Shown here piece after piece: positions 3,122 through 56,327 of a stretch of 64,000 nucleotides of DNA (its first letter is position 1; every line of letters begins with the position of its first letter). The DNA comes from a virus: IMG/VR virus record IMGVR_UViG_3300023215_003041. One strand, written 5' to 3'. The position numbers and the translations under genes are program-made. Under the pieces are notes generated by a model that was not told the DNA's origin, searched no databases, and was given only the letters and a program-made list of their open reading frames with translations.

Positions 3122-3634
3122 TTACTCACCCTTTTTAGGCGGCAAAACGTAATCACCCTCTGCAAAGCTACCCGAGAGCTTAGTGACGGTAGGTGGTATT
3201 TTTTGGTTTGGCGGACCCACCGGTTTATCACGCGTCTCTACCTTAGATTCGGCGGCAGGTATCGGTTCATCAAATAGACGGGACAACTCCCCAAGTAGCC
3301 GCTGAATGCCGCCCTCGTTGCCCTTTACCGCGAGGTACGCGTCTTTCAACGGGAGTAGCCTTTCAGGGCTTATGTACCCCATCTTGTATAAGGCGTTCTT
3401 AACCCCTTCGTCTTGGAGAAAAACTATCCGCTTAGTGATTCCCGCAAACAGCGATTCTTGTTCAGGGGTAATGACTTGCTGTTCGATAATGTCTTTGTTG
3501 AACGAGGTTTTGACTCTAATGGCGTTACGGTAGTTATCCGACTCCGCTGCGGGTTTACATTCAGGCATCGAGGTGTCTGTACTCGCTTTAGGTAAAACTT
3601 CATCAACTTTTTGCATGGGTGGTACAAATGGCAT
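3122..3634 (-). CDS. hypothetical protein
   Basis: ORF; start moved to the ATG at 3634 that follows the conserved leader AGGAGATTGACG. Confidence 0.7.
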   Translation of the reverse strand: MPFVPPMQKVDEVLPKASTDTSMPECKPAAESDNYRNAIRVKTSFNKDIIEQQVITPEQESLFAGITKRIVFLQDEGVKNALYKMGYISPERLLPLKDAYLAVKGNEGGIQRLLGELSRLFDEPIPAAESKVETRDKPVGPPNQKIPPTVTKLSGSFAEGDYVLPPKKGE

Positions 3635-3645
3635 CGTCAATCTCC

Positions 3646-4761
3646 TTACATTAAAACTTCACGGTGACCATATGAGTTTAGGGCGCTAACTACACCTTCA
3701 TGCTCTAAAGCCTCTACTAACCTTGCTGCACGGCTGTAACCGATACGAAACTTACGTTGAAGGGTGGATACGTTGGCCTTACGCGTTTCAATTACAAAGG
3801 CTTTTGCTTCTTCGTAAAAAACGTCTTCGGGTTCGGGTTCGGGGTCGCAGGGTAGTTTAATTTCATGAGATAGCACTTCATCATCATCTAAATGAAAGGC
3901 TTCTTTTAGGCTCAGCGCTAAGGATAGAAGCCCATTAGCTCCGAGAAATATTTCTGACTCGAGACGGGCTTCCTGTTGGTCCTTAGGGATATCAGCGCTT
4001 TCTTCAATCAAGCGGTCAGAATACTTAATACGCTTAACCGAGCCATCTTCAACAAGCACCGCGGTTAACTGTTCGTCATAACTAACAGCAAGTTTCTGAA
4101 CGAGCTTGCCTGAGTCTAAACACAATTGAATTTCTTCTGAGTTTAGTTCCTGGTTCTTGGCTCTGATAACCGCCTTGGTTTCATCTGTGGCTTGAAGCTC
4201 AGTTTCTTCGAGTAATTCAAATTGGGTCGGGTGTCCATTCACAAGCCAGCTTGTTAGGTCTGAGGCTAGAGAGCGTCTTGCGAATGGGACAATAGGTAAA
4301 CTGCCTAAGGCTTTACGCAGCACGGCAAGAAAGATTTCAGCTTCACCATCACTCGACGCGTTTACGATTATTAGCTTGTGGCTCGGGATAATTGTTCCCA
4401 TTGTTGCAGTCTGGTCGGTAAAGGCTCGAGGTAAGAGCTGCGAGACAACTTGTTCTTTTAGGTCTGCCCGAGCTTTCTTACCTAACGGTGCGCCGGTTTC
4501 AGCTTCAAGTATCTTGGCACGGACTTCTACTTCACGGGCCACAACCCGCGCTGGGATTATCTTACTTTCTTTAAGTAGCTTGACCGTATAGAAGCCATTA
4601 ACCTCGTGGACCAACAACGAACCAATAACGGGAGAGAAACCTAAGGTCGCCATCGTGTGATCACCGCAAGGGTGGAAAGGGATATTTTCTAGGGCCTGGG
4701 TTAAGCCTGAGAAATCTACGTGCTTGGTTAGTAAATAAAATTTTGCGTTTTTAAAATACAT
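3646..4761 (-). CDS. rdgC: recombination-associated protein RdgC with C-terminal FtsK-gamma-like winged helix
   Basis: RdgC-type N-terminus (YFKNAKFY, FHPCG, TLGF, KIIPARVV, QLLPRAF, VQKLA); C-terminal YEEAKAFVIETRKANVSTLQRKFRIGYSRAARLVEALE resembles FtsK gamma; leader before ATG 4761. Confidence 0.9.
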   Translation of the reverse strand: MYFKNAKFYLLTKHVDFSGLTQALENIPFHPCGDHTMATLGFSPVIGSLLVHEVNGFYTVKLLKESKIIPARVVAREVEVRAKILEAETGAPLGKKARADLKEQVVSQLLPRAFTDQTATMGTIIPSHKLIIVNASSDGEAEIFLAVLRKALGSLPIVPFARRSLASDLTSWLVNGHPTQFELLEETELQATDETKAVIRAKNQELNSEEIQLCLDSGKLVQKLAVSYDEQLTAVLVEDGSVKRIKYSDRLIEESADIPKDQQEARLESEIFLGANGLLSLALSLKEAFHLDDDEVLSHEIKLPCDPEPEPEDVFYEEAKAFVIETRKANVSTLQRKFRIGYSRAARLVEALEHEGVVSALNSYGHREVLM

Positions 4762-4801
4762 CGTCAATTTCCTAGTTGTTTAGTTAGTTTCTTTGTAAAG
4801 A

Positions 4802-5014
4802 TTATTTCTTTTGTTTCGGGTTTTTTGCTCTAATATCACGAACCACAACATAAGCTAAGATGGCGGTATCTAGGACTGCGCCAATCGCCAGCCCTAGAAC
4901 TAAAGACTTCTCAAAGCCTAAATCCGTATAAAATTGAAGTGGGATAATCAAAGCTCCCGCCGTTAAGTACACCACTAAAACCATCGATAAAAGCTCTAAG
5001 ATTATATTTTTCAC
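4802..5014 (-). CDS. small membrane protein (two hydrophobic segments)
   Basis: 70-aa ORF with two hydrophobic stretches and a basic C-terminus. Confidence 0.6.
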   Translation of the reverse strand: MKNIILELLSMVLVVYLTAGALIIPLQFYTDLGFEKSLVLGLAIGAVLDTAILAYVVVRDIRAKNPKQKK

Positions 5015-5505
5015 TTTTCTTGCTCCTTACGTAGTTGTTCTATTTCCTCGTCTATACGGGTTTTCATGCAAAACTCAGGGTATTGCCTGTTGTATGTGAG
5101 AGGTGCAGAAAGCTTGTCAAGAACCTCAATCTTCTTCTCTATGGCGAATTTGTTTACATATTTATGGAATTCGTCACCACCACAGAAAAGCGTAAATAAA
5201 TCACTAAGCAAGTCCGTATACTCTTTTGAGTTGACTTCCATTTCATCTAAATCAAGAAACATGTTTCTAGCTACATCTATAAACTCTTTAAATTCCTTAA
5301 CATTAAGCTGTAACCTAGCAATACGCTTATTAGCCTTTGCTAAATCCTCTTTTACACACAAAAGGTCTTCGTGCAAGTTGTATGCTACTGAGCTGCTATC
5401 GCTTTCTGCTAAATTTTGAATTTCTTCGTTTGTTTTACCGTCTGACCACAAAGTCATTTTTTCCTGATCCTTGCCGTACGTTTTATCTACTTTAAAAACA
5501 ATCAC
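5011..5505 (-). CDS. hypothetical protein (coiled coil; C-terminus shared with neighbour)
   Basis: C-terminal NKFAIEKK..LRKEQ shared with 5502..5855. Confidence 0.65.
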   Translation of the reverse strand: MIVFKVDKTYGKDQEKMTLWSDGKTNEEIQNLAESDSSSVAYNLHEDLLCVKEDLAKANKRIARLQLNVKEFKEFIDVARNMFLDLDEMEVNSKEYTDLLSDLFTLFCGGDEFHKYVNKFAIEKKIEVLDKLSAPLTYNRQYPEFCMKTRIDEEIEQLRKEQEK

Positions 5506-5855
5506 TTTTTTTGCTCCTTGCGTAGTTGTTCGGCATACAGATTCATTGCTATTGCCATATGCATATCTATCGAAGTATTGGAGCGAAGCCAGTCTAGCGC
5601 CTCAACCTTCTTCTCTATTGCGAATTTGTTTAGTGCATCGACTGAAGACCCTTCTACAAAAGATTCATAAATATCGTCCGCCAGATGACACCTTGCATAA
5701 AGCTCACCGTCTTCTTGCATATCCAAAAGCGGCTCAATTCGCTTTGTGAGTAATTGATGTTGAAACTCCAGTTCAGCAACACGCTGTTCTAATTTCTCGT
5801 ATTCTTCATAATCTACATACGAACCCTCAGGGCTTTCTTCTAAACCACGACACAT
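5502..5855 (-). CDS. hypothetical protein, mosaic of neighbouring paralogs
   Basis: N-terminus identical to an internal segment of 6036..6842 through the 144-bp duplication. Confidence 0.55.
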   Translation of the reverse strand: MCRGLEESPEGSYVDYEEYEKLEQRVAELEFQHQLLTKRIEPLLDMQEDGELYARCHLADDIYESFVEGSSVDALNKFAIEKKVEALDWLRSNTSIDMHMAIAMNLYAEQLRKEQKK

Positions 5856-6842: not shown

Positions 6843-7194
6843 TATCTTTTACCTTGGTAAGAACAACATCCCAGTCGTCAACCATTCCTGATTCATAATC
6901 CCGACTAATGTTCGTGGCTGTTAATTCATAAACCCCATCAGGCACTTCAAGAAAATTAATGGGGAGTTCTTCTGAGATATCATCGATAATATCCCTGACC
7001 CCAAGTTCACTCTTTCTTTTCAAAACTCTAAAGGTTTTGGAAAAAGCGAACCCATGTTTAGTTTCATACATATAAGTGGCTACACGGCCAATACAACGTG
7101 CTATCGGCTTCGGGTTATTTAGCCTTTGGGTAATACCTAAAAAATTTATTGAACTCACGCTACTTTCTCCTTCTCTAGTTGGTCGCTCTCCCAC
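6835..7194 (-). CDS. hypothetical protein (start uncertain)
   Basis: ORF in operon context. Confidence 0.55.
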   Translation of the reverse strand: MGERPTREGESSVSSINFLGITQRLNNPKPIARCIGRVATYMYETKHGFAFSKTFRVLKRKSELGVRDIIDDISEELPINFLEVPDGVYELTATNISRDYESGMVDDWDVVLTKVKDND

Positions 7195-7673
7195 TTCGAG
7201 AGGTAATCAAAGGCCCCGAGTTGTTCGTATATTTTTCCAAGGGTCTCTAAATCTAAGTCCTCAGTCTCATCGATAACGGGAATCGCCACCCAGGCCATAG
7301 TGACTACATGGAGGGGATTCTGCTTTTCTTTAAAGGCGACATGGGCTTCGTTGAGATAGTCATTCAATCGCTTGTCGGACTGGCGGTATCTCGATTTGAA
7401 ATAGTGGGGCTCACTAACCACGTATTCTTTTCCTGTCGGATCACGACAGACTACAGAACATTCGTAGTACCAGTTGAAACACCCCTTAGCGACACTCTCA
7501 GCAACGTCCTGTGAGACGTTGATTTCTTTACAAGTCTTGTAATCAATCAAGGTGAAGTACTTCGACTCACCCAGCACCATAGCGATAGCAAAATTCTTAA
7601 TTTTCTCGCGTACTACAATCTCTTGATACTTACGAGGGTTGTACTTCTTATTCCGTTTGGCTTTCTTTTTCAT
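7155..7673 (-). CDS. hypothetical phage protein with basic N-terminus
   Basis: 172-aa ORF starting MKKKAKRNKKYNPRK. Confidence 0.7.
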   Translation of the reverse strand: MKKKAKRNKKYNPRKYQEIVVREKIKNFAIAMVLGESKYFTLIDYKTCKEINVSQDVAESVAKGCFNWYYECSVVCRDPTGKEYVVSEPHYFKSRYRQSDKRLNDYLNEAHVAFKEKQNPLHVVTMAWVAIPVIDETEDLDLETLGKIYEQLGAFDYLSKWESDQLEKEKVA

Positions 7674-8280
7674 CAGTCAATTTCCGTTCTTTTACCTTCT
7701 TACTTCTGCGTCTAGTAGGTTTATCCCAGTTAAGGCGCCCGACGTTCGAGTCCACAAGCAAAATTCCAGCGGGGTCCCAACAGAACCAGGCATACTCGCA
7801 GCTATCACCCCCGCCACCACTAAAATCGGGTCTTGGTACCGCGACAACAATTTTGTCTGGAGGATTATCGGCCCAGAACTGTTCTCTTTTCTTGGTCCCT
7901 AACGCGTTAATACGCATTAGGAAGCATACGAACCCATGAGACTCAGCCTCGCTTCGTGCTTTAGTGACGAAGGCCTCGAATAGAGAGAAAGGGGGGTTGG
8001 TTACGATAATATCGAACTTAATCGCACTAAGGTCTGTCTCTAGGTAATTCAAACCTTCCTGAATTTCGCAGTAATACTTTTCGAAGTCCTGCGGTACCAA
8101 ATCGTAGATATTTCGTTTAGTGCCACGACACGGCTCTAGGAACCGTGCGGGGCGATTGTCATAAGACGCAAAGTGTCTAAGTGCATCCCAGTCGATATGC
8201 TTGAATAAAGCCTCAACAAGCGGTCTTGGGGTGGGGTAATCTTCGAACTCAGCGACCTTTTTATTTGTACTGCTCATCAT
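7648..8280 (-). CDS. DNA amino (N6-adenine-type) methyltransferase
   Basis: Motif I-like FLEPCRG, motif IV DIIVTNPPF, N-terminal EDYPTP. Confidence 0.85.
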   Translation of the reverse strand: MMSSTNKKVAEFEDYPTPRPLVEALFKHIDWDALRHFASYDNRPARFLEPCRGTKRNIYDLVPQDFEKYYCEIQEGLNYLETDLSAIKFDIIVTNPPFSLFEAFVTKARSEAESHGFVCFLMRINALGTKKREQFWADNPPDKIVVAVPRPDFSGGGGDSCEYAWFCWDPAGILLVDSNVGRLNWDKPTRRRSKKVKERKLTDEKESQTE

Positions 8281-8315: not shown

Positions 8316-9116
8316 CTAACCAATCGGGATCGCAAGTTCGCGGAAGATTTCATTCGCGGCAGCGGTATTCCTAACCCCTTTAATGGCTCCAGCGTTGAGC
8401 TCACCTTGAGGGACATGGAAGAAACCGATAATGCGCCAGAACTTATTTAGTTCGTCTCGAGACTGGATAAGCCGTTCGGCCATTGCCTTGCTAAAGCCCA
8501 GTTTAGTTTGAGCTTGTTCAACGGTGAGGTCTGTTTCCAGTTCGATAAATTCCTCAAGCAAACATTTCTGAGCATCATTCAGTTTTAGATAGGTGCCGTG
8601 GCCAAACCGAGATAATCCGGCTATGGAGTCTGACTTATCGCCAACCAGTGTTTTGTAGAGACGCATATCATCGGGTTTTAAGTCTTTAAGCGTTTCACTT
8701 ATATAGTCCATCGTTACCGTGTCGCTAAGAAGTTGTCGGTAATCTTGGTCGTTACTATCAATGAAGATTTGCGTTTCAGGATCTTTCGTTCTAACCAACT
8801 CCGCTATCACATCATCCGCTTCACGACCCTCACAGCGAATTTGCAAACAGTTGGAATGGGTGAGTAGTTCACGGAACTTATCCATAAACAAATAGAATTC
8901 ATCCGTAGAATCAGACTTAGCCTTGTAGTCAGGGTGTATGTCTTGGCGAGGCTTCTTGGCACCCTCACCATCCCAGACCCAAATAAGGACCCCGTTTGGT
9001 GGGTTCTCTACACAGGCTTGAATATAGGCGTGTATGGCCCATGCTGGACCTTCACTTTCGAACTTACGGCGGAGCAGGTTATTACCGTCGCAAAGGTGTA
9101 GTTTTTTGGTTGTCAT
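8316..9116 (-). CDS. 5'-3' exonuclease / flap endonuclease (PolI N-terminal or T5 D15 family)
   Basis: LCDGNNLL, EADDVIA, SNDQDYRQL, LVGDKSDSIAG motifs. Confidence 0.9.
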   Translation of the reverse strand: MTTKKLHLCDGNNLLRRKFESEGPAWAIHAYIQACVENPPNGVLIWVWDGEGAKKPRQDIHPDYKAKSDSTDEFYLFMDKFRELLTHSNCLQIRCEGREADDVIAELVRTKDPETQIFIDSNDQDYRQLLSDTVTMDYISETLKDLKPDDMRLYKTLVGDKSDSIAGLSRFGHGTYLKLNDAQKCLLEEFIELETDLTVEQAQTKLGFSKAMAERLIQSRDELNKFWRIIGFFHVPQGELNAGAIKGVRNTAAANEIFRELAIPIG

Positions 9117-9136
9117 ATCGTCAATTTCCAGAGGTT

Positions 9137-9181: not shown

Positions 9182-10252
9182 TTACTGCGCTGGACCGATT
9201 AATTCGAATTCCAACACACCCCACGTAAAGCTAAGGTTCTTAGGCGCTACTGCTTGGTTTTTCACTTTAACAAGTACCCGTTGACCTAGAAGTCCGGCTT
9301 GTTTAACCTGGCTGTGGAACTCCTGCCAGTTATGCCAGCCGGTTTTCGCCGTGGTGTGGCCCAACATAATACCCGCTTGAGCAATCGTGGTGACTTGCCC
9401 ATCGGGTGCGGTGGCCACAATATCCTGGGTCAACTTCATAGGAAGTTGTACCGAGGGGTACGGGACGTTAGGTTTTTTCGGGTCTGTTGTGGTCCGGTAA
9501 GCGGTCATAACAGCATTTGCCCAAGGCTGGCCATCTGAACCCATTTCACCATCGTAGGTGTGAACGTAGTTAGTTTGGTCACCCGTTGGGGAAGCCACTA
9601 CCCAGCGAACCATTTGGCAAAGCATGTAACCAGAGTTCTCCGTCATATCAATTTCAACTTGAAAGGGTTGAAGAATTGATTGTGGAGCGCTACCCAACGT
9701 CATACCGTGATAGGAAGTCTTAACCCAGTCCTGAACCAATAGGTCTGAACTGCCCATGGTTTCCATTGTCATTTCTCGAGCACCTAAGTACTTAGCTAGC
9801 TCGGGAGGTAGATTCGCTGGAATATCCATGGCCGTGTTACCTTGCGGGTTTACTGCCATGGGTGTGTGTTGCTGAACGTGGTTTTGCGGTTGCTGAACGT
9901 GGTTTTGCGGTTGCTGAACGTGGTTTTGCGCTTGCTGAACGTGGTTTTGCGGTTGCTGGTAACCTTCTTGGTTCTGTGTTTGCTGAACGTGGTTTTGCGG
10001 TTGCTGAACGTGGTTTTGCGCTTGCTGAACGTGGTTTTGCGGTTGCTGGTAACCTTCTTGGTTCTGTGTTTGCTGAACCTGAGGGTTAGCTTGCTGCTGG
10101 TAACCTTCTTGGTTATTAACCACCTGAGGGTTAGCTTGCTGCTGGTAACCTTCTTGGTTGTTAACTACCTGAGGGTTAGCTTGTTGGTGTTGTTGAGTCG
10201 CATTAGCGTTGTTTTGTGCTTCTGCGATCATTTGATCAATTTTATTACTCAT
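9182..10252 (-). CDS. hypothetical protein with Q/N-rich tandem-repeat N-terminus
   Basis: Repeats QQANPQVVNNQEGY and QQPQNHV; start at ATG 10252 after the leader; lies between exonuclease and helicase genes. Confidence 0.75.
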   Translation of the reverse strand: MSNKIDQMIAEAQNNANATQQHQQANPQVVNNQEGYQQQANPQVVNNQEGYQQQANPQVQQTQNQEGYQQPQNHVQQAQNHVQQPQNHVQQTQNQEGYQQPQNHVQQAQNHVQQPQNHVQQPQNHVQQHTPMAVNPQGNTAMDIPANLPPELAKYLGAREMTMETMGSSDLLVQDWVKTSYHGMTLGSAPQSILQPFQVEIDMTENSGYMLCQMVRWVVASPTGDQTNYVHTYDGEMGSDGQPWANAVMTAYRTTTDPKKPNVPYPSVQLPMKLTQDIVATAPDGQVTTIAQAGIMLGHTTAKTGWHNWQEFHSQVKQAGLLGQRVLVKVKNQAVAPKNLSFTWGVLEFELIGPAQ

Positions 10253-10390
10253 ATCGTCGATATCCAAATTGTTAGATTATTGATTATTGATTAATTACTG
10301 TTTGTTTGGCTTTCGCCCCTCGCTTTTCTCCGAGGTCATATATACCAAGCCTTTGAGGCGGTATAGATGATAACCTTAGGCTAAAATTGG

Positions 10391-12582: not shown

Positions 12583-13275
12583 TTAGGCTACTTTTTCGAA
12601 GGAACGAGTTCCTTTGCAGTATTTCGACAGCACGTAACTGCCTAGATGCTCTAAAGGCAAACTAATTAAGTCCTGCAACGTCGTAAGACTACTGAGATTC
12701 GTTTCCAATCGTTCGATATGTTTGGGGATAACAATTTTAGGATCACCGCAAAAAATAACGGTTCTCGGGGAAGTTTTCGCAATTGTAGCTAGCCTCAATA
12801 CCGTATCGCTATCGTGAGGCGTTAAGTCTACAAACACCATCGGGTGAATATTCGTCATACCGAGGTGCTTGGCCGCATGGCCTTTGTTAACAGCAAACAA
12901 AGGTTTTACCCAAGTATGTAGAGGAGAGTTTAAACGCTCTAAACAAGCCAGCCAGTTCGCCGCCTCCGGCAGCTTAGTTTCATCCAAGAAATAAGTTTTA
13001 CCATTAGGAATAGGTAGCATCGTTTGAACCAGCGGGTCAGTGACCACGCGGTTAAATTTGCGTAAATGGATTTTGCTTAGTTCTCGAGTGGCAAGATTAA
13101 CATTGATATTGTGTGAGCACTGGTTCTTAAGGTGCTTAACCGTGAGGTTTGATTTACGGTTTAACCCTATAAATTCCCAGCCATAAGGGCAAACGTCTTG
13201 ATAAAGATAGGAGACACCATCGTCGTCGTGGATACCATAGTACCCGAGTGGCGCTCCCTGAGTTAGCATTGTCAT
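12583..13275 (-). CDS. hypothetical protein
   Basis: 230-aa ORF with the conserved leader. Confidence 0.7.
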   Translation of the reverse strand: MTMLTQGAPLGYYGIHDDDGVSYLYQDVCPYGWEFIGLNRKSNLTVKHLKNQCSHNINVNLATRELSKIHLRKFNRVVTDPLVQTMLPIPNGKTYFLDETKLPEAANWLACLERLNSPLHTWVKPLFAVNKGHAAKHLGMTNIHPMVFVDLTPHDSDTVLRLATIAKTSPRTVIFCGDPKIVIPKHIERLETNLSSLTTLQDLISLPLEHLGSYVLSKYCKGTRSFEKVA

Positions 13276-13300
13276 CGTCGATATTCCAATTTGTAGGTAA

Positions 13301-15660: not shown

Positions 15661-15887
15661 ATCGTCAATTTCCAAATTTTAAGTTAAGCCCAGTGGGCAA
15701 GTAATAAGCTACGCCTACAACTAAATAAATTCAAGTCGAAAACGTAACAGAAGGATAAAATATTTAGTTTTAAGTAACTATTTATTCGCTATTAAAAATA
15801 TTCTTTAAATACTTTAACTTTTACATTACACTAAATTCGACCTTGGAGGTCACTATCTATAAGAATAAGTAAAATGGCTGATAAATA

Positions 15888-46823: not shown

Positions 46824-47282
46824 ATGGCCCAATATATAAATATACAAAGCTCAGTACTGCGATTTTGCAAAGATAGTGCGGGTATTTTGAAAACACTTAC
46901 AGGGAGTAATTTCGAGAGCTTAAACCTTGACGCGTTTTCTAACGAGGATGATTTACCCGACGGTGATCTTATTGGGATAGAGAACTTGGCAATGCAATCA
47001 GCGTCGGATTCCTCACCTTTGGACTCGTTATCCGCATCCGTAACCCTAAGTACAGTTTCGGACATAAACAATATGCGCTTAAGTAAAGCCATAGATTATA
47101 TCTATGAATGCTTAAGACCCACAAAATCCTTTATTCTTTATGATGAATCAACCGCCGCTAGGCTGGGCCAAATTACGTGTGTAAGAATGACCCAGATACT
47201 ACCAGTACAGGACGGGAAGAATGGAAGGGTGTTTCAATCAGTTATTTTTCAAGCGTCCGCGCTGGATGAGTCACAAAACTGA
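46824..47282 (+). CDS. putative tail terminator protein
   Basis: 152 aa just upstream of the tail tube gene. Confidence 0.5.
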   Translation: MAQYINIQSSVLRFCKDSAGILKTLTGSNFESLNLDAFSNEDDLPDGDLIGIENLAMQSASDSSPLDSLSASVTLSTVSDINNMRLSKAIDYIYECLRPTKSFILYDESTAARLGQITCVRMTQILPVQDGKNGRVFQSVIFQASALDESQN

Positions 47283-47590
47283 GTTAAACCTAAATGTCTA
47301 AGACTTGTACAAACAGCAATTTGAAAAGCCTGTGGACGGGTGTATAGTGTTCTTTGGCAGTACTTATCCAGACGTTCCAGTGATTTTTTCTGGAGTCTTA
47401 AAGTAAAGCTTTTAGATGATTCCGACATAGGGACAGACCGCATATCTATAGGACTTAAGTTATTGTCCAAAAAGTGGTCTAATAAAGCCCTTAATTTATC
47501 AGCGCTCGATTCTCCATCAATAGGAGCTTGAGCGGCGGTAATTAAAATGTTCGTGGGTGTGATGATTGTTATTGGTGTTAATTTTGCCAT
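47249..47590 (-). CDS. putative ribbon-helix-helix DNA-binding protein, antisense within the tail operon
   Basis: Strong SD GAAGGAGG; KSFTLRLQKKSLERLDKYCQ...RPQAFQIAV is RHH-like. Confidence 0.6.
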   Translation of the reverse strand: MAKLTPITIITPTNILITAAQAPIDGESSADKLRALLDHFLDNNLSPIDMRSVPMSESSKSFTLRLQKKSLERLDKYCQRTLYTRPQAFQIAVCTSLRHLGLTQFCDSSSADA

Positions 47591-47645
47591 GATTCATCCT
47601 CCTTCAACAAGGTATCAATAGTAACCTAAAATTTGGAGATTGACG

Positions 47646-48476
47646 ATGGCTGGTGAAGCTAAAACCACTAATTTTATGTTGGGTACTGCCACAGTAATGA
47701 TTGGTAAACCCGAAGAATTATACGACCTTAACCCAGAACAACATTCGGTTGGTCTAGTTAAGAATTTCACAATCGAATCGCAAAAAGAAAGTACCGACCT
47801 TCCTCAAGGCCGTACTAACGAGATTGCGTTCTCTATTACCACGGGATCTACTACCCGAGGTACCTTTGAAATGTACGAATACACCGAGCAAAACTTAGCC
47901 TATGCGTTAGGTTTAGACGGTGGTGAGCTGGTTGAAGTTACCGGCGATGCCCATGTGCTATCGGCTGAGGCTTCATTTGCTTCGGGGACTGCAACCCTAC
48001 AGCTTATTGACGGTGTTGGCCAAAATGTGGAAGTCGGTAATACGGTAAGTGTTCGTGATGAAGTATCTGAAAATATTGTTATTGCGAAGGTTACGGACGT
48101 TACTGGTATTTCGGAGGGTACCGCGACAACGGCCACGATTGAACTAACAATCCCTGATAGCGATTCTACTCAGACCTTAGCCGCGGGTTCTTATGTCTCG
48201 GTAGTTAATGTCCTGGACTTAGGCTCAACCTCCGACGAGCTTCGTTACGCAGCAAAAGTTATCGGGCAGCTCGCTAATGGTATTTGGGTTACCTTCCTTA
48301 TCCCTAAATTCCGTGTGAGTTCTGGACTAACGATGGCCTTTGGTACGGACAACTTCGGGAATATCCCTTTTGAGTTCACGCCGATTCGTGTTAACCCTAC
48401 AGACCCGTACTATGCGGAGTTTAAAGGTAAAACGGGTAAAATGCTTAAAGATTCGGTTAAGGCCCCTCTAAGCTAG
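47646..48476 (+). CDS. major tail tube protein
   Basis: LGTATVMIG...VGLVKNFTIE...FEMYEYT; followed by a terminator and chaperone genes. Confidence 0.75.
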   Translation: MAGEAKTTNFMLGTATVMIGKPEELYDLNPEQHSVGLVKNFTIESQKESTDLPQGRTNEIAFSITTGSTTRGTFEMYEYTEQNLAYALGLDGGELVEVTGDAHVLSAEASFASGTATLQLIDGVGQNVEVGNTVSVRDEVSENIVIAKVTDVTGISEGTATTATIELTIPDSDSTQTLAAGSYVSVVNVLDLGSTSDELRYAAKVIGQLANGIWVTFLIPKFRVSSGLTMAFGTDNFGNIPFEFTPIRVNPTDPYYAEFKGKTGKMLKDSVKAPLS

Positions 48477-48522: not shown

Positions 48523-48535
48523 AAGGAAATCGACG

Positions 48536-48892
48536 ATGAGTGACGCACTGAAAACCACTTTTATTATCAAGATTAATGATAGTGAAAAAGAAGTATTTAT
48601 GAGCTTTGCCCTCTTAAATACTATTACAGGTTATTTCGAAAACCCTGAACAATTGAGTGAAATTTTTCTTAACCCCCAGGTTAGGGAAAGTATCTTGGTT
48701 GAACTCTTGTCTGAACGAAACCCCACGGGGCGGATAACTAAGCAACTTAATACGTCAAGCTTACTTATTGACCCTAACGACGTATTGGATTTGCTTGAAT
48801 GGGTGGCGGAGCACGTTGAAAATTTTTTTACTCAGGCCTTCAAGAAGGCCAATCAAAGATTGAAAGCGAAGATGAAAGCCCCGAATGCTTAG
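48536..48892 (+). CDS. tail assembly chaperone (gpG-like)
   Basis: Between tail tube and tape measure; in-phase T TTT TTT at 48823-48829. Confidence 0.75.
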   Translation: MSDALKTTFIIKINDSEKEVFMSFALLNTITGYFENPEQLSEIFLNPQVRESILVELLSERNPTGRITKQLNTSSLLIDPNDVLDLLEWVAEHVENFFTQAFKKANQRLKAKMKAPNA

Positions 48893-49197: not shown

Positions 49198-49215
49198 CAA
49201 TCAGGGGAATCGACG

Positions 49216-52200
49216 ATGGCTAAAGGTAGCTCCGCATCTAATACTATCCGTAAAACACTTCTAAACTTCACCATTGACGGTAACTCACAAAAGCAAATCG
49301 AATCGCTAGTTAAGGAATTTGAAAAACTCGAGCGGGTGACGAAAAGCTCGAGTAAGCAGTTGCAGGGGTATTTGGCTCAGATCCCCGATACTCCCGCGGG
49401 TCGTGAAAAGCTTGCTTCAAATGCTAAGAACGAAGTCAACACCCAGCGTAAAATTCTCCAAGAAAATGAGAAGAATGCTAAGGCGATACTTGACCAACTG
49501 GCCCTCACTATTGGTAAAGGGTTAAATCCTCAGCAACAGCAACAGTTGTTAAAAGGGCTAAATACGGCAATGGGTGAAATCACCGGCCGATTTACGAAAC
49601 AAGCCCAAGAGCAAGCTAAAAAAATGGCTGCGTCTCTGGATACTTATTACAAGAAACAATTTGATAGCAACCCCACGATTAAGCGTCGCCGCCAGATTGA
49701 CCCTAATGCGGTTCGTGATTACAACCAGCGAGATTTAGCGAATGCTTTGGCCAGTCAGCGTATTTTTAGAAAAGGGGCGAGTGAGGCTTTAAAAGATGCG
49801 CAACGGTTGGGTGACACCGAGGCCATCGCGAGATTCAAAAAGAAATTACAGAGTTTGGACGCGGGTCTTACTGCGGCTGAAAAGCAGTTAAAGAAATTTG
49901 AAACTACCGCCAGCGAGGCCGCTAAACAATCAACCAAGGTACGTAAAGAGGCGGAGCGTAAAACGCTTGCTGACTACCGTAGGGAGGCGCTACGCCTTGA
50001 CCCCACGGTTCCTAAGACAGATCCATTACGAAAAGACGCCTTACGGTCGCTAACTCGGGACCAAATCCAAGTTGAGATAGATAAGAATAAGGTTTTAAAA
50101 CGCGCTGCGGACTCGGCTTTAAAACAAGGGTTGACGGCAGGTGACACCTCTTTAATACGGGATAGTAGCAAAGCCTTAAAAGAACTTAAGCATAGTACCA
50201 AAGAAGCTAAAGAACAGCTTTCCCAGCTAACTATTGAGAGTCGTAAAGCGGCAGATGCCGAGAAAAAAGCTCAGCAAAAAGCGGCGTCTCTGGATACCTA
50301 TTACAAGAAACAATTTGATAGCAATCCCGCGATTAAGCGTCGCCGCCAGATTGACCCTAATGCGGTTCGTGATTACAACCAGCGAGATTTAGCGAATGCT
50401 TTGGCCAGTCAGCGTATTTTTAGAAAAGGGGCGAGTGATGCTTTAAAAGACGCGCAACGGTTGGGTGATACGGACGCTATCCCTAAATTCAAAAAGAACT
50501 TACTACGTTTAGATGCCGGTATTGCTGCGGCTGAAAAGCAGTTAAAGAAATTTGAAGATACGACCAGAGAGGCCGCTAAACAATCAAACAAGGCACGTAA
50601 CGAGGCGGAGCGTAAAACTCTTGCGGACTACCGTAGGGAGGCGCTACGTCTTGATCCCACTGTCCCTAAGACAGACCCGTTGAGAGGGGGTAGTTTACGC
50701 TCTCTCACTCGAGATCAAATCCAAGTTGAGCTGGATAAAAATAAAGTCTTAAAAGGTGCGGCAGATAAAGCTTTAAAGCAAGGGTTGGACACAGGTAACA
50801 CAGCATTAGTAAGGGATAGTAGCAAAGCCTTAAAAGAACTTAAGAAAAGTACCAACGAAGCTAAAGAACAACTTAAGGCCCTTACCAGACAAAGCCGTGA
50901 AGCCGAACAGCTAGAACGGGAGAAAATTAAGGGAGCTAAAGCTAAGGCCCCTGTCACTGAGCAGCAACGCGTAAACCGAAGAATTGAACAGATACAGCAA
51001 GCGAGAACAAACCAACGTCTCGATGGGGGTGCTCAGTTATTTCGAAACCAAGGGCAACTTCTACGTAACTATGCGGTTATGGGTGCGGGTATCGGAGGGA
51101 TTACGACCTCGGCGATATTCTCCACCGAGCTTGACCGGCAGTTTAAGCAGCTCCAGTCGATAGTTAACCTTACCAATGTGGAAATGGAAGAACTTTCGAC
51201 AAATCTTATTGATGTGTCGGAGAAAACGAAGTTTACGGCTACCGAGGTTGCGGATGCGGCGATTACACTGGGTCAGGCCGGTTTAGGTCAAAAGGATATT
51301 CAAAATGCGATAGAGGGCGTTACACTCTTTGCTACCGCCGTAGGTTCAGATTTAAAAAGCGCCGTAGACCTCGCCACGTCCACGCTGGGGGTATTTAATA
51401 AAGATAGTTCTCAGATGCTTAATATCGTGGACAAAATGACGACCGCGGTAAACAACTCGAAACTAAACCTCGACAAACTGACTTTAGGTTTGCAGTACTC
51501 GGGTAACCTTGCGGCTCAGTCGAATGTGACCTTTGAAGAAACAGTCTCGGCGTTAGGTGCAATGGCCAACTCAGGGATTAGAGCGGGTTCAACGTTGGGC
51601 ACAGGTTTACGTCAAATAATTATTTCGTTACAGAAGCCCTCAGACACATTTATACGAACGGTTCAGGCCTTAGGTATTTCAATGTCTGATCTTGATATCA
51701 CTGCCCATGGTTTAATCCCTGTGATGCGAACTCTCGCAGAGCGAGGGTTTACCGTTCGTGACGCCATGGAGAGTATGGAAGTTCGGGCAGCATCAGCCTA
51801 CGGGGCCTTTGCCAACAACATTGAAGTTGCGGAGGAATTAAGCGAACAAATGCGTATTGGTGGTTCTTCGGCGCGAGCGAACGAAACCCAGATGGGTGCG
51901 TTGTCTAACCAGTTAGCGCGATTAAGCTCTATCAGTAAGTCGATTGTTTATGAGTCTCTTGAACCCCTCTTAGATGTTATAACCGGTTTAACTGAAACCA
52001 CGGCGGACTTTTTATCCGTGGTACGTGATTTAGGCCCCGCGCTAAGTGTGCTGGCGGTTCCTGCGTCAATCTTCGGTAGCTTACTGGCTTCACGTAGCGT
52101 ACTGAGTCTTGGTGCGGGTTTGTTGGGTGGGGTGGAAATGCTCACAGGGGGCGGCAAAAAGGGAAAATCTAAAGGTAATATTTTCTCTCGTCTTATCAAT

Positions 52201-55200
52201 GTCGCGAAAGGCCGTGGTGTAGGCCGTGCTGTAGGTTTAGCAGCCCGTGCTATACCTGGGGTGGGTACTGCTACCCTGTTAGGTACTGGTGCCGTGTATG
52301 GGTACCAATACTTAGATGGTCGTCAACGAGCAAATGATCGTGTTGATAATACTCAGGCGAGGCTTAATCAAGGCCAAGCTGAAACAAAAGCCTACCAAGA
52401 CCAACTTAAGAAAGTTGGTGGGACGATTGACACACTTATACTTAAGCAACATAACCTCGCGGATAATGATGCTCTGCAGCGTGAGATTCGTCGGTTAAAT
52501 GATGAATTCCGCCAGCAAGGTCTCTATATCGATTCCTCGGTGGATAGCTACGATAAACTCATTGCGAAAATGCTTGAGTTCGAAACGTCTACGCGCAACG
52601 GTGTTAATTATCTGCAGAAAAATAACCGTCGCTTTTACCTAGAAAACAGTGAAGCTAAGCGTTCTGAGATTTTTTCAACAGGGTGGTTTGATTCTGATGC
52701 CGAGCGATTACTTACTGGACAAACAAACCCTTTGGCCAATGGCCAGAACTCCCAGCGTAATGCTGCAACGTCAAGACGCCGAGGACAAAATGCGGGGGTT
52801 TCTAATTTTTACAATAAAATAATTGCTTCGGTACTGCCTACGTTCTTTGAGGATTTGCAGGAAATTAATGATGAAATAAAGAATGTTGATTTGACAAAGG
52901 AAGGGGCGCTGTCGCAAGTAAAAAAGGCGAGAAGTAAAACGCGGGAACTTGAAGGTGAGCTCACCCGTATCCTAAACCAATCGCCGGAGCAGTTAGATGC
53001 CCTTATGGGGCAGTTTAAGCTTGAGGGTAAGGCGCGAGAAAACGCCGAGAAATATATCGAGGACCTTGCAGCGGCCATGCTATCTCGGGCCAATGTTCTT
53101 TTGGATATAGAAACGAATCAAAAAGAGTGGGATAGCTTAGATCCTGAGAAGATAGAAGGCGACCGCGAACTGTCGGAGTTTATATTAACGAGGCGTCGTG
53201 ACGGGCTCAATGGGATTGCTGATATTTCTCAGGATATCGAAGGGTTATTTAAGGAAGATGAAAACCACGAGACGAGTGATTATTTAGACACGTTCAAAAA
53301 GGTACGAGATATCGTAAGAGACCGTCTTACCCAGCTTGTAGAGCATGAAGCTGAGACGATTTCCGAGTTAACCGAACGGGGTGTGGCTAATCCTCGTCTG
53401 GTTCTTCAAGAGCAAGGATACTTTCAGGCTCAAGGGAATGCTCGGGGCCGGTTAGAAAAGTACTTACAATCTGCGGCACTTTCGGCGAGACCGGATGCTA
53501 ACCTAACGTACCCCGCTCGGTTAGCTGAATTGGATAAAGAAATTGAGGTTTTGAAAGAACGGCTGCGTCAAGTTACCGACCGAGATACGTCCGACGAAAT
53601 AAAGAACAAGCTTAAAACACTGAACACAGAACGCGAAACGGTTGCGAATGAGCAAGACACTTTATTTGCAGCCATCGATGGCAATTCTCCGGTTTCGGTA
53701 GCCCAGCGTGATAGAGAATTAAAGGCCCGTATCAAATTCGCTAATGAGCAGTTTGATGCCCTTCAAGAAAAGACCCTAATTAGGGAGAGCTTTGAACAAT
53801 CACTCTTAGCAAAAGAGAACATCGACCCTCGCCAGTTTAGGCTTTTAGGGGATGATGATGAATTGTCTCGGTTGTTGTCTGATGTGGTTAATGAACAACG
53901 CACCAGTATTTCTAACCAGTTAAAAGAGGTGCGCCTTTCGGCGGAGGAACTTCGTAGGCTCTCGGAGGATAAGCTGCGTGAGTCAAATGAGTATGTTGCT
54001 ATTGCTGAAAATGACGGGTATACCGACGAGACGCGGGAAAGGGCCTCAGGGATTGCGAACGAACTTAAGACCCAAGCCACGGAGCTCGAGCGCTCGGCAA
54101 TTGAGTTAGAAGAACAAGGGGTACTAACAGCCAAAGAGGCGCTTGCGGATTTTGCGGAGTATCTTAAAAGAACGATTATTGACAACCCTGATTTAACAGG
54201 GGGCCGGAGTTCGATAAAGGCCACGAAGGCGGTCGAGAGCATTGAGTCTGAAACCTTGTCGCTAGACTCAAATCTTATTGATTTGTCCCAAGCCTCGAAA
54301 GATGCAGATTTAAGCCTACGCGACTTCCGTATGAAAATGGAGGACGTCACTCGAGCTATATCTATGAGTCCTTATGAGACGGACAAATACAATAAAGTTG
54401 GGGCTGCGATATATGGTCGTTCTTATAGACCATTAAACGGTACCGGTGTAGATGAAAACTATGCCGGAGCCAACGAAGGGTCTCTAGGGTCTAGCTTGAG
54501 TAACGCGGGGCAGTACGTTGTTGATGATGTAAATAAGCATTATCGAAGCTACGATATGCTTAAGCAAATGACCCTAGAGGCGACCGAGGCCGCTAAAGGG
54601 TTAGGACAGGCATTTGGTGATACCTTCACGGATTTAGTTACAGGGGCACAAAGTGGTGAAAATGCTATTCGTAGTTTAGGCGCCAGTATCTTAACCCAGA
54701 TGGCCAATATTGCTTCACAAGCTGTTGCGAACCAACTGATCAGTTCAATATTTTCTATGATAGGTTTGGGTGGTGGTGCCGCGAACGTAGGAGGGATGGC
54801 TTCAACGGGGGCGGTAGGTAACTTGGCGGGGCTTCGCTTTACAGGGGGGCCAATCCTTGCGGGTTCTTATAAGGTTGGTGGTTTGATTACGGCGGGGATG
54901 GATACCCGAGATTCCACTTATGCGAAAGTGAGCCGAGGTGAGTTTATTTTACGTAAACCCTCGGTGGATGCCCTAGGGATTGAAAACGTTCGGGCGCTTA
55001 ACTCGGTGGACAAATCCACGATTAAACAAAAAGAAGCGTCCACACTTAAAGCGAAAGAAACTATTTCCCAAATAAGTTCCACGGAATCGGGGGAGGTAAA
55101 TGTGTATGTTATGTCGGAGAAAGCACAACCCCAGTTAGGCCCGAATGACGTTAAAGTAATTATTGGCGACGACATTGCTAGAGACGGGGAAATCGCCACG

Positions 55201-55236
55201 TTAATAGCATCAATTCCTAGAGGTAAGAACAAATGA
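49216..55236 (+). CDS. tape measure protein (2006 aa)
   Basis: Long helical protein; TP901-type segment (SEKTKFTATEVADAAITLGQAG, LGAMANSGIRAGSTLGTGLRQ). Confidence 0.9.
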   Translation: MAKGSSASNTIRKTLLNFTIDGNSQKQIESLVKEFEKLERVTKSSSKQLQGYLAQIPDTPAGREKLASNAKNEVNTQRKILQENEKNAKAILDQLALTIGKGLNPQQQQQLLKGLNTAMGEITGRFTKQAQEQAKKMAASLDTYYKKQFDSNPTIKRRRQIDPNAVRDYNQRDLANALASQRIFRKGASEALKDAQRLGDTEAIARFKKKLQSLDAGLTAAEKQLKKFETTASEAAKQSTKVRKEAERKTLADYRREALRLDPTVPKTDPLRKDALRSLTRDQIQVEIDKNKVLKRAADSALKQGLTAGDTSLIRDSSKALKELKHSTKEAKEQLSQLTIESRKAADAEKKAQQKAASLDTYYKKQFDSNPAIKRRRQIDPNAVRDYNQRDLANALASQRIFRKGASDALKDAQRLGDTDAIPKFKKNLLRLDAGIAAAEKQLKKFEDTTREAAKQSNKARNEAERKTLADYRREALRLDPTVPKTDPLRGGSLRSLTRDQIQVELDKNKVLKGAADKALKQGLDTGNTALVRDSSKALKELKKSTNEAKEQLKALTRQSREAEQLEREKIKGAKAKAPVTEQQRVNRRIEQIQQARTNQRLDGGAQLFRNQGQLLRNYAVMGAGIGGITTSAIFSTELDRQFKQLQSIVNLTNVEMEELSTNLIDVSEKTKFTATEVADAAITLGQAGLGQKDIQNAIEGVTLFATAVGSDLKSAVDLATSTLGVFNKDSSQMLNIVDKMTTAVNNSKLNLDKLTLGLQYSGNLAAQSNVTFEETVSALGAMANSGIRAGSTLGTGLRQIIISLQKPSDTFIRTVQALGISMSDLDITAHGLIPVMRTLAERGFTVRDAMESMEVRAASAYGAFANNIEVAEELSEQMRIGGSSARANETQMGALSNQLARLSSISKSIVYESLEPLLDVITGLTETTADFLSVVRDLGPALSVLAVPASIFGSLLASRSVLSLGAGLLGGVEMLTGGGKKGKSKGNIFSRLINVAKGRGVGRAVGLAARAIPGVGTATLLGTGAVYGYQYLDGRQRANDRVDNTQARLNQGQAETKAYQDQLKKVGGTIDTLILKQHNLADNDALQREIRRLNDEFRQQGLYIDSSVDSYDKLIAKMLEFETSTRNGVNYLQKNNRRFYLENSEAKRSEIFSTGWFDSDAERLLTGQTNPLANGQNSQRNAATSRRRGQNAGVSNFYNKIIASVLPTFFEDLQEINDEIKNVDLTKEGALSQVKKARSKTRELEGELTRILNQSPEQLDALMGQFKLEGKARENAEKYIEDLAAAMLSRANVLLDIETNQKEWDSLDPEKIEGDRELSEFILTRRRDGLNGIADISQDIEGLFKEDENHETSDYLDTFKKVRDIVRDRLTQLVEHEAETISELTERGVANPRLVLQEQGYFQAQGNARGRLEKYLQSAALSARPDANLTYPARLAELDKEIEVLKERLRQVTDRDTSDEIKNKLKTLNTERETVANEQDTLFAAIDGNSPVSVAQRDRELKARIKFANEQFDALQEKTLIRESFEQSLLAKENIDPRQFRLLGDDDELSRLLSDVVNEQRTSISNQLKEVRLSAEELRRLSEDKLRESNEYVAIAENDGYTDETRERASGIANELKTQATELERSAIELEEQGVLTAKEALADFAEYLKRTIIDNPDLTGGRSSIKATKAVESIESETLSLDSNLIDLSQASKDADLSLRDFRMKMEDVTRAISMSPYETDKYNKVGAAIYGRSYRPLNGTGVDENYAGANEGSLGSSLSNAGQYVVDDVNKHYRSYDMLKQMTLEATEAAKGLGQAFGDTFTDLVTGAQSGENAIRSLGASILTQMANIASQAVANQLISSIFSMIGLGGGAANVGGMASTGAVGNLAGLRFTGGPILAGSYKVGGLITAGMDTRDSTYAKVSRGEFILRKPSVDALGIENVRALNSVDKSTIKQKEASTLKAKETISQISSTESGEVNVYVMSEKAQPQLGPNDVKVIIGDDIARDGEIATLIASIPRGKNK
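49627..50874 (+). repeat. internal tandem duplication in the tape measure gene (594-bp units, 654-bp period)
   Basis: 49627-50220 vs 50281-50874; both encode AASLDTYYKKQFDSNP...AKEQL. Confidence 0.9.
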
Positions 55237-55619
55237 GCTTAGAAGTTTTTGACTTTCCGTATCACAAGGTTTCTTATTCGTATCGTGAACGTTCCTCTAG
55301 GATCACGCTCGGTAATGATTGGGAGTATGTAACCAAGCCCTCAACGCCAGTATCTCGATTATTTAAGCTGTCGTTTGAAGCTATGAAATCTTTTGAAACA
55401 CCTCAAACTTTATCGCCGATGGAACGTAGATATAGTATTGATCACTTAGATGATTTTTACCAAAGACATGAACTTTGGAGTGAATTTTTATACAACCATC
55501 ATAGGTTTGGAAATGTCGTGGTTCGTTTTGATTCACCGTTACAAGTCCCTGAGGGCTATACCGAAGGTGATGGGGTATCACTCCCTTTTATTGTCACATT
55601 AAGAGAGATTCCACTTTAG
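55233..55619 (+). CDS. distal tail protein (lambda gpM-like)
   Basis: 128 aa directly after the tape measure gene. Confidence 0.6.
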   Translation: MSLEVFDFPYHKVSYSYRERSSRITLGNDWEYVTKPSTPVSRLFKLSFEAMKSFETPQTLSPMERRYSIDHLDDFYQRHELWSEFLYNHHRFGNVVVRFDSPLQVPEGYTEGDGVSLPFIVTLREIPL

Positions 55620-55655
55620 TCTTTAGTATAAAATTTATTTTTCGATATATTTTTA

Positions 55656-55684
55656 TTGACAAGTGAATCAAAAACACCTAATCT
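55656..55684 (+). promoter_or_regulatory. sigma70 promoter of the small RNA
   Basis: TTGACA-17 nt-TAATCT with an AT-rich upstream element. Confidence 0.75.
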
Positions 55685-55690
55685 TGAAGT

Positions 55691-55770
55691 CGGTTAGCAG
55701 CCCACGTGGCTCCTAATTATCGTCGATTTCCAAATTAACGCCCTAGCTTTTAGCTAGGGTGTTCTATTTT
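55691..55770 (+). ncRNA. candidate trans-acting antisense sRNA complementary to the conserved leader
   Basis: 5' hairpin 55692-55718, single-stranded AUCGUCGAUUUCCAAAUUA 55719-55737, terminator hairpin 55738-55762 plus U-rich tail; no ORF. Confidence 0.72.
55738..55770 (+). terminator. intrinsic terminator of the sRNA
   Basis: ACGCCCTAGCT-TTT-AGCTAGGGTGT-TCTATTTT. Confidence 0.7.
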
Positions 55771-55838
55771 GGCGCTTGAAAAATATTCAATCCTTTATTG
55801 TTTTCGGTATACTGAGGCAAATTTAAAGGAAATCGACG

Positions 55839-56327
55839 ATGAAAGAACTCTCTAACGAGGTGCGGTCTCAACGACATTCTTTGACCCCCGACGAACTAAC
55901 TACCTACCTACAATTAGAGATAGATGATCCTGATGGCGCTCCCGTCGTTATCCGACTTACGGATAAGAAAACCACCGACTGGAATGGAGTTACATGGGTT
56001 AAATCACCTTTCCAGCTTTCAGGGGTTTCTAAAAATTCAAGCAGCGAACGAAATCGGCCAAGTCTAACGTTACCGAATGAAGGCGGCATTTATAGTTACT
56101 ATATAAATCGAAGCTTGCTGGAAGATGCAATTGTAACTCGTTATAAAGCTATGCCCCATGAGTCGGCCAGTTCCCTTGTTTCTAAGCACGTATATTACGT
56201 ATCTCACCCGAGTAATATCGCGGGGGACCTACTTACTCTGCAATTGCGCCGGTTATCGGATGCCAACAAATATCAAATCCCCCCGAACCGGTATACTCAA
56301 CCCGAGTTTAGTACGGTGATAGTATGA
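55839..56327 (+). CDS. minor tail protein (gpL-like)
   Basis: RPSLTL...LEDAIVTRY; synteny. Confidence 0.6.
   Translation: MKELSNEVRSQRHSLTPDELTTYLQLEIDDPDGAPVVIRLTDKKTTDWNGVTWVKSPFQLSGVSKNSSSERNRPSLTLPNEGGIYSYYINRSLLEDAIVTRYKAMPHESASSLVSKHVYYVSHPSNIAGDLLTLQLRRLSDANKYQIPPNRYTQPEFSTVIV

Follow-up and report, generated by a model that had tools for sequence, protein, structure and literature searches.

A 13-nucleotide translation-start leader on about 31 genes of a siphovirus as candidate docking site of a phage-encoded small RNA

Why should a phage place nearly the same 13 nucleotides (nt) at the translation starts of about 31 of its genes? The question is raised by IMG/VR virus record IMGVR_UViG_3300023215_003041, of which a stretch of 64,000 nt was analysed (hereafter the window); it is wholly phage and belongs to a siphovirus with a full genome of roughly 80 kilobases (kb). 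The repeated element is a leader, GGAAATYGACGAT, and its complement, here called the seed, lies in a candidate small RNA (sRNA) encoded within the tail operon. We consider it rather probable that the leader is the shared docking site of this phage-encoded, trans-acting antisense sRNA of FinO type, which would block translation start.

Allowing at most one mismatch, GGAAATYGACGAT has 27 matches in the window against 0.21 expected from 100 dinucleotide shuffles, among which the largest value was 2. When degenerate copies are counted there are 31 leaders, each with its 3' end at -2 to 0 from the ATG that opens an open reading frame (ORF), before 24 minus-strand and 7 plus-strand genes; the original prediction, made from the letters of this DNA, had counted 23 and 7, and the enrichment that it described holds in the recount. 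It had also claimed more conservation than a Shine-Dalgarno (SD) sequence needs, and the conserved stretch does cover 13 nt, including the entire spacer from SD to start codon, beyond the 4-6-nt purine core of an ordinary SD. The motif does not include the start codon as a constant element, since its spacing to that codon falls into two classes, GACGATG and GACGATATG. Of the 31 leaders, 30 are preceded by at least 15 nt of intergenic DNA, and 28 of the 47 genes without a leader overlap their predecessor or directly adjoin it (Fisher p = 1.5e-7 against leader genes). Leaderless genes carry canonical SDs such as AGGAG or GGAGG, which agrees with the earlier statement that the DNA polymerase, primase and csrA genes use ordinary SDs. 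A pyrimidine had been reported throughout at one position of the motif (Y), and the 29 high-confidence leaders of the window indeed have C in 13 cases and T in 16.

Simpler roles for the leader were considered and set aside. An ordinary SD and nothing more is ruled out by the 13 conserved nt together with the canonical SDs on leaderless genes of the same genome. A promoter was rejected because the leader at 48525 begins right after the T-run of a terminator, which leaves no room for a promoter between the two, and because late-gene leaders share no TAAAAT-like box upstream; for the same reasons the 13-mer is taken to act in RNA. Pairing of the spacer with a conserved stretch of 16S rRNA was dropped as its complementarity was unconvincing.

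The only copy of the motif that is opposed to the surrounding genes, with no start codon after it, is the anti-leader seed ATCGTCGATTTCC at 55719-55731 (plus strand). It is part of the candidate sRNA of about 80 nt (55691-55773, plus strand), which is predicted to fold into a 5' hairpin, a single-stranded seed and an intrinsic terminator with a U tail. A promoter read by eye (TTGACA, 17-nt spacer, TAATCT; 55657-55685, plus strand) lies upstream; the terminator hairpin and U tract (55737-55773, plus strand) were called by a scan with 12 pairs, 6 of them G-C. The unit holds no ORF. Its fold has an energy of -31.6 kcal/mol (z = -4.15) and leaves the seed unpaired in both the minimum-energy and the centroid structure, as does the consensus fold of 8 sRNA homologues, in which 6 of 15 pairs show compensatory double changes. 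Complementarity between sRNA and leader reaches over about 55714-55737. Among 81 start regions, 29 pair with the seed at -20 kcal/mol or better, and before many early genes the complementarity extends 3-6 nt to either side of the leader, giving duplexes of 13-20 bp at -20 to -29 kcal/mol. Since a shuffled-seed control for these energies was noisy, with 9% of controls at -15 kcal/mol or better, the motif statistics were relied on and not the energies. In metatranscriptome X16 a contig begins at 55691, the predicted start, with a depth of 21.5 versus 4.9 for a contig ending at 55687, a weak sign in assembled contigs that carry neither strand nor local depth. Further downstream, in metatranscriptome X15, a contig starting at 55741 has a depth of 82 versus 11.7 for one ending at 55405 (region 55741-56500, plus strand), a sign that the minor tail genes may be strongly transcribed from a promoter-like TTCAAT-16-TATACT just upstream of 55828.

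Does the pair of leader and seed hold in related phages? A search of the phage collection returned no near-identical record of the window. Among named phages, Pseudoalteromonas phage KB12-38 has the closest terminase protein (53% at the amino-acid (aa) level), and Achromobacter JWF, Caulobacter Seuss and Acinetobacter EAb13-type phages are further off; closer IMG/VR relatives form clade A (about 70% aa, 72-83% nt), which contains 2 complete genomes with terminal repeats and 2 proviruses. In every lineage with the sRNA, its unit lies between homologues of the tail genes 55233-55619 and 55839-56327. A promoter scan finds TTGACA-17-TAATAT in clade A and TTGACT-17-TACTAT in KB12-38 in the same register, and a terminator of the sRNA was detected in all three of window, clade A and KB12-38. 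Four lineages use three leader types, and the syntenic sRNA carries the matching complement in each: leader GGAAATYGACGAT with seed AUCGUCGAUUUCC in the window, GGAAATTGACGAT (about 28 perfect copies per genome) with AUCGUCAAUUUCC in clade A, GGATTGACGAT (17 perfect copies) with AUCGUCAAUCC in clade C, represented by contig G006 of 78.7 kb, and GGATTGACA(AU) with AUUGUCAAUCC in KB12-38. The exact window seed has no match in IMG/VR, where relatives differ from it by one base. By duplex energy the own-lineage leader type is the best-pairing partner of the sRNA in 3 of 4 lineages, and the C-type late-gene leaders of the window pair about 4 kcal/mol more weakly with the clade A sRNA.

KB12-38 separates the neighbouring leader from the common one: the adjacent gene has GGATTGACT (GACT), and the seed instead matches the majority leader GGATTGACA (GACA), which argues against a purely cis fold-back role. 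The sRNA gap is missing, the two tail genes abutting, in JWF, a Burkholderia prophage and other high-GC relatives (L019-L029), and also in L021; a repeated leader was looked for in JWF and none was seen. Scans of genome contigs and metagenomes returned no further lineage. In clade C contig G006, genes at 4256, 8137 and 9954 (plus strand) carry a longer leader of clade A type (GGAGATTGAC or GGAAATTGAC) instead of GGATTGAC, a mixture that points to cassette exchange between lineages or to a retained ancestral form.

The variation within the leaders gives a finer view of the pairing. A-to-G facing U and C-to-T facing G were counted as transitions compatible with it, G-to-A and T-to-C as incompatible, and each lineage was scored on its own sRNA. 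Where the sRNA has A opposite Y, as in clade A genome G001, C occurs in 0 of 35 leaders and T in all 35; where it has G, as in the window, C and T are both common, and the contrast is significant (p = 5e-6). No copy with 0-1 mismatches and C at Y occurs in clade A genomes G001-G004 among the matches listed. Both pyrimidines are found at Y in a single lineage, the one with G in its sRNA; G pairs with both C and U, A only with U. Transitions in the relatives comprise 30 compatible and 7 incompatible changes (p = 2.5e-6), and 24 versus 3 in the spacer only. At spacer pyrimidines of the relatives, where the confound with SD strength is removed, the C-to-T change is seen at 12 of the 93 sites that face G, the T-to-C change at none of the 186 that face A (p = 1.1e-6); a three-fold mutation bias towards C-to-T would still yield about 8 T-to-C events. 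All 122 leaders together contain 11 incompatible transitions and 19 transversions, as would be expected if one mismatch in a duplex of 13-20 bp is tolerable. The earlier proposal that selection acts on RNA-RNA pairing is supported, at the level of sequence comparison, by the covariation in four lineages, the contrast at Y, the pyrimidine asymmetry and the KB12-38 seed that follows the consensus.

Which protein might assist? FinO-domain proteins bind U-tailed terminator hairpins and promote antisense pairing at ribosome-binding sites (RBSs), according to the passages on this family in PMC9977716 and PMC3105414, and the candidate sRNA ends, like FinO-family RNA ligands, in a terminator hairpin and a 3' U tail. 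A protein of 160-170 aa with a ProQ/FinO domain (PF04352, 41.7-49.6 bits, above the Pfam cut-off) occurs in KB12-38, clade C and clade A. All 5 phages with the sRNA have such a gene, and none of the 5 relatives that lack the sRNA does (not found in JWF, L019, L021, L022 and L027). By analogy, the phage ProQ/FinO-domain protein is probably a chaperone of the sRNA and not the reader of the motif. The window also encodes an intact CsrA homologue (29139-29327, minus strand; PF02599, 77 bits), and CsrA was considered as reader of the GGA in the leader. It is confined to the window lineage and absent from clades A, B and C, all of which have leader and sRNA; it is thus not a conserved reader of the leader, and was rejected as such.

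Copies of the motif away from ordinary start codons extend the list of possible targets. A second promoter-to-terminator unit (34560-34764, minus strand; terminator called) contains a sense leader copy without a start codon, GGAAATCGACGAA, at 34666-34678. This orphan unit lies downstream of the primase gene beside iteron-like repeats of GTTTCTAG type (34470-34545) and has a conserved counterpart in clade A (L030, about 9270-9500, minus strand), whose leader copy is complementary to the clade A sRNA over 19 nt; clade C too has a start-less sense leader copy. The unit may be an extra target or sponge of the sRNA, or a target linked to replication. Partial leaders occur at two late genes that start with GTG: TAATTGACGAT, followed by AATTGAGG, at 38034-38044 (plus strand), 14 nt upstream of the large terminase start (-18.8 kcal/mol), and ATCGACGAT at 57927-57935 (plus strand), upstream of the J-like tail gene 57949-62679 (-21.2 kcal/mol). 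Both match the 5' side of the sRNA seed region, and clade A has the same partial-leader arrangement at its J-like gene.

The proposed mechanism can be set out as follows. The leader combines a weak SD (GGAA or GGAG) with a fixed spacer leading up to and into the start codon. The sRNA would be transcribed from a sigma-70-type promoter of its own within the tail operon, and its seed would pair across SD and AUG of about 31 mRNAs; because these elements would be covered, binding of the 30S subunit should be blocked and decay perhaps triggered. Genes with ordinary SDs would escape, among them those for DNA polymerase and primase, csrA, acrIF9-aca2, an XRE-type regulator (15900-16220) and coupled downstream genes. 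The phage ProQ/FinO protein would aid pairing, as in the FinP/FinO and RocR/RocC systems. We infer that pairing occurs in vivo, that it represses rather than activates and that ProQ is involved, and the purpose is likewise reasoned from these features. The favoured purpose is a translational lock that would keep lytic genes silent in the lysogen and would bear on superinfecting kin as well; alternatively, the sRNA might serve as a timing throttle in lytic growth. The lock is favoured because the phage group is temperate, to judge from the integrase and excisionase that clades A and B encode, from G004 and G005, which are provirus records, and from the leaderless XRE-type gene of the window.

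Several observations weigh against this docking-site model. With Y excluded, the window alone gives 8 compatible versus 4 incompatible transitions, which is not significant (p = 0.19), and 6 of the 8 are GGAG or GGGA changes in the SD part, where A-to-G changes in GGAAAT are confounded with SD strength. Because the bias in the window is weak and lies largely in the SD, the statistical support for wobble selection comes from the relatives; the comparison of substitutions with a null, which the original prediction had suggested, therefore comes out wobble-biased in the relatives and falls short in the window. Its caveat about transition bias and about GGAG as a better SD was justified for the window, and the relatives resolve it. 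Some window leaders carry disruptive changes (10265, 13286, 31375 and 34277). In DNA terms the seed is no more than an inverted motif copy, so covariation of seed and leader would by itself also be expected from concerted evolution of a repeat family. The co-occurrence of ProQ and sRNA amounts to one evolutionary event and not five, since it sets one clade against another, and no ProQ gene was found in the window; synteny would place it about 5 kb beyond the left end. The promoter scan did not call the sRNA promoter in the window, because the -10 element TAATCT matches in only 3 of 6 positions. RNA-library contigs cover the sRNA locus, with DNA carry-over not excluded and with contigs that lack strand, ends and local depth. 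Finally, titration of about 30 mRNAs by one sRNA is plausible for leaky transcripts in a lysogen and demanding in lytic growth.

Other explanations account for part of these data. The leader could be a uniform translation-initiation cassette, with AU-rich enhancer, weak SD and fixed spacer, spread and kept alike by recombination among intergenic modules; in that case the anti-leader would have a local role only, folding in terminator read-through transcripts onto the leader 55828-55840 and tuning one tail gene. Early intergenic regions (17079-34340) are indeed modular: a hairpin GGTGGGGA-N(2-4)-TCCCCACC is followed by (T)TTTAATTAACTTAAAATTT / TTAATTAACTTAAAATTT and then by the leader, an order present before many early leaders (for example at 19600-19625, 22750-22775 and 28020-28045) and repeated in identical layout in KB12-38 with another hairpin (CGGGGTAACGTTACCCCG). 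The AU-rich part of the module resembles the epsilon enhancer of T7 gene 10, UUAACUUUA. A same-strand leader also follows only about 100 nt after the anti-leader, and since leaders are alike within a genome, a match to the neighbour would give covariation too. Yet a conserved promoter and a strong terminator stand between the seed and the leader that follows it in each of the four lineages, the neighbouring leader of KB12-38 mismatches the seed at the base after GAC where the consensus leader matches, and homogenisation predicts neither a Y that is polymorphic only where the sRNA has G, nor C-to-T confined to sites opposite sRNA G, nor the missing T-to-C opposite A. We therefore regard the cassette as unlikely. 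A protein might read the motif instead, as a repressor or activator on leader RNA in the style of T4 RegA, as the phage CsrA on GGA, or as a DNA-binding protein with the inverted copy as an extra site. Conservation far past the SD, a CsrA homologue beside leaders that contain GGA, and several variants that are not compatible with pairing would suit such a protein. CsrA is, however, absent from clades A, B and C despite their leader-sRNA system, a binder of single-stranded leader RNA would not bind the complement and leaves the matched anti-leader unexplained, a double-stranded DNA site needs neither the sense strand nor a fixed distance from 31 start codons, and the strand-specific asymmetry of transitions is a prediction of G-U pairing that is not obvious for protein recognition; we think a protein reader quite improbable.

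The orphan unit offers another partner for the sRNA, which might serve replication control in the manner of plasmid antisense/FinO copy-number systems (Inc RNA with FopA or PcnR), leader pairing being secondary or incidental. The start-less unit, from promoter to terminator, is conserved in the window and clade A beside the GTTTCTAG-type repeats and the primase gene; in clades A and C the match between orphan copy and sRNA spans 18-19 nt and takes in flanks that ordinary leaders lack, and plasmid FinO-domain proteins often serve replication control (PMC9977716). This account leaves about 30 identical targets per genome and the wobble-biased variation unexplained, and the orphan copy of the window pairs over only 12 nt, less than most leaders, so it seems to us very improbable. 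An extension of the docking-site model to RNA-programmed immunity is a tentative thought that we do not expect to hold. Here the prophage sRNA and its FinO-type chaperone would silence about 40% of the phage genes and incoming kin, with specificity classes set by seed and leader, so that heteroimmunity would be written in a 13-nt code through their co-evolution and the orphan sense RNA beside a putative origin would be a release valve, or sponge, on induction. An arms race would fit the window seed, whose G pairs with both C-type and U-type leaders, and the loss of about 4 kcal/mol by C-type late leaders against the clade A sRNA.

The positions of the individual leaders rest on the motif search and on location at an ORF start; perfect denotes the exact motif and C or T the base at Y. 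Perfect T leaders on the minus strand stand at 4760-4772 (gene 3646-4761), 9117-9129 (gene 8316-9116), 15661-15673 (gene 14485-15660, with an ATP-dependent DNA ligase domain), 21633-21645 (gene 20241-21632), 22717-22729 (gene 21913-22716), 23055-23067 (gene 22776-23054), 24546-24558 (gene 23654-24547, C5 DNA methylase), 25114-25126 (gene 24570-25115), 26157-26169 (gene 25136-26158), 29077-29089 (gene 28590-29078), 32711-32723 (gene 32500-32712) and 33063-33075 (gene 32789-33064), with a perfect C leader at 17067-17079 (gene 16223-17068). The GGAGAT form GGAGATTGACGAT occupies 3633-3645 (gene 3122-3634) and 19566-19578 (gene 19130-19567), and the GGGAAT form GGGAATTGACGAT occupies 27987-27999 (gene 27111-27986). 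Other minus-strand variants are GGATATCGACGAT with A-to-T at 10253-10265 (gene 9182-10252), GAATATCGACGAT with G-to-A and A-to-T at 13274-13286 (gene 12583-13275), GGAAATTGACGTA at 30842-30854 (gene 30354-30842, RadC-like), GGAAATCGACGCT with A-to-C at 31363-31375 (gene 30967-31362), GAGAATCGACGAT at 32225-32237 (gene 31924-32226), GGAAATCGACAAA with G-to-A at 34265-34277 (gene 33438-34265), AGGAATCGACGAT at 37944-37956 (gene 37460-37945) and the degenerate GGAAATTGACTGA at 7673-7685 (gene 7155-7673). On the plus strand, perfect C leaders stand at 39850-39862 (portal gene 39861-41321), 41386-41398 (gene 41397-42566), 48525-48537 (gene 48536-48892; the leader right after the terminator T-run) and 55828-55840 (minor tail gene 55839-56327; about 100 nt downstream of the sRNA seed); GGAGAT forms are GGAGATCGACGAT at 43011-43023 (major head gene 43022-44233) and GGAGATTGACGAT at 47635-47647 (gene 47646-48476), and the GGGAAT form GGGAATCGACGAT at 49205-49217 precedes the tape-measure gene 49216-55236. 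The GGAGAT leaders (3645, 19578, 43011, 47635), the GGGAAT leaders (27999, 49205) and the exceptions (10265, 13286, 30854, 31375, 32237, 34277) are those that the original prediction had singled out.

The genes of the window fall into two blocks. Replication and accessory genes form a minus-strand block (1-37,956) with DNA polymerase (254-3121), primase (34960-37455), helicase, ligase-domain protein, C5 methylase, RadC, CsrA and Aca2; late genes form a plus-strand block with large terminase (38058-39845), portal, major head (43022-44233), tape measure (49216-55236) and the J-like tail protein (57949-62679). The gene order of the window is circularly permuted with respect to that of clade A genome G001, and about 16-20 kb are missing, which in G001 hold tail fibres, integrase, excisionase and the ProQ-like gene. 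The phage was found in many seawater metagenomes from 2014 to 2024 and in some metatranscriptomes. A tRNA scan of the window gave no match, and an Rfam scan of the window gave no family at gathering score, c4 (RF01695) included. The sole plus-strand gene in the minus-strand early block encodes an XRE-type helix-turn-helix protein (15900-16220; PF01381, 26.2 bits); it has a GGAG SD and no leader, is divergent from the ligase-domain gene, and is a candidate regulator of CI/Cro type that would escape the sRNA. Its clade A orthologue has a leader-like string of 12 nt, AAAATTGACGAT, within the first codons (L033 13092-13104, which is G001 73092-73104, plus strand), kept in 3 clade A genomes and absent from the window gene. 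An acrIF9-aca2 cassette had been proposed: an Aca2/YdiL-like protein (PF08965, 57.7 bits) at 17433-17792 (minus strand) is consistent with the aca2 part, and the 67-aa product of the neighbouring gene 17836-18042 has no Pfam match. KB12-38 (L006) has genes annotated as DndB-like and PAPS-reductase-like (53735-55293, 47197-48036 and 50675-51676), which suggest DNA modification.

How does such a system compare with those already described? The known phage and plasmid antisense RNAs (c4, FinP, OOP, sar) each act, to our knowledge, on one gene or a few, and the multi-target sRNAs known to us use short, degenerate sites. RocR/RocC of Legionella pneumophila joins a trans-acting sRNA to a FinO-domain chaperone and represses several mRNAs at their RBSs; unlike RocR, which has four host competence mRNAs with imperfect sites, the candidate sRNA faces about 31 near-identical phage sites that co-evolve with the seed. 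The T4 RegA repressor and RegB endoribonuclease exert phage-wide control at the translation-initiation regions of many phage mRNAs, but these are proteins with loosely defined sites, and the reader here is apparently an RNA and the site a fixed 13-mer. In FinP/FinO of F-like plasmids, as treated in PMC3105414 and in the relevant part of PMC9977716, a structured small RNA with a terminator hairpin blocks the traJ RBS with help from a FinO-domain protein of the same element. The candidate system shares with it a terminator-bearing small RNA over an RBS and, in phage relatives, a PF04352 protein; in contrast to FinP, which is cis-encoded with a single target, it is trans-encoded in the tail operon with about 31 standardised targets and a presumed chaperone. 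The c4 RNA of P1 and P7 (immI) is a phage small RNA that pairs around the RBS and blocks translation, its specificity setting immunity types (PMC12197685). Like c4 the candidate is a phage sRNA over RBSs; unlike c4, with two sites in the icd-ant operon, it acts genome-wide if the model holds, and it has no Rfam match to c4. GcvB uses one seed for dozens of mRNAs at or near RBSs, and sponge RNAs are known, as the relevant passages of PMC4474525 and PMC9299463 describe; the short degenerate target motifs of GcvB-type sRNAs differ from the almost invariant cassette seen here, which includes the SD-to-AUG spacer. A 2025 review of phage sRNAs covers single- or few-target RNAs only, c4 being nearest (PMC12197685), and a review of the FinO/ProQ family mentions RocR/RocC and phage-borne homologues and no such leader-sRNA system (PMC9977716). 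The literature searched, including full-text searches for the motifs, held no description of it.

An RBS-occluding antisense RNA with a FinO-type helper is already known in kind, and what would be new here is the genome-wide scale. The phage appears to have standardised the translation starts of about 31 genes for one small RNA, with seed and targets changed together in four lineages. If confirmed, the system would provide a phage with a translation switch that is genome-wide and sequence-programmable, and would give phage-encoded ProQ/FinO proteins a first job. It would also be a natural model for the co-evolution of a large sRNA regulon with its regulator, and a ready-made orthogonal pair of leader and sRNA for synthetic biology.

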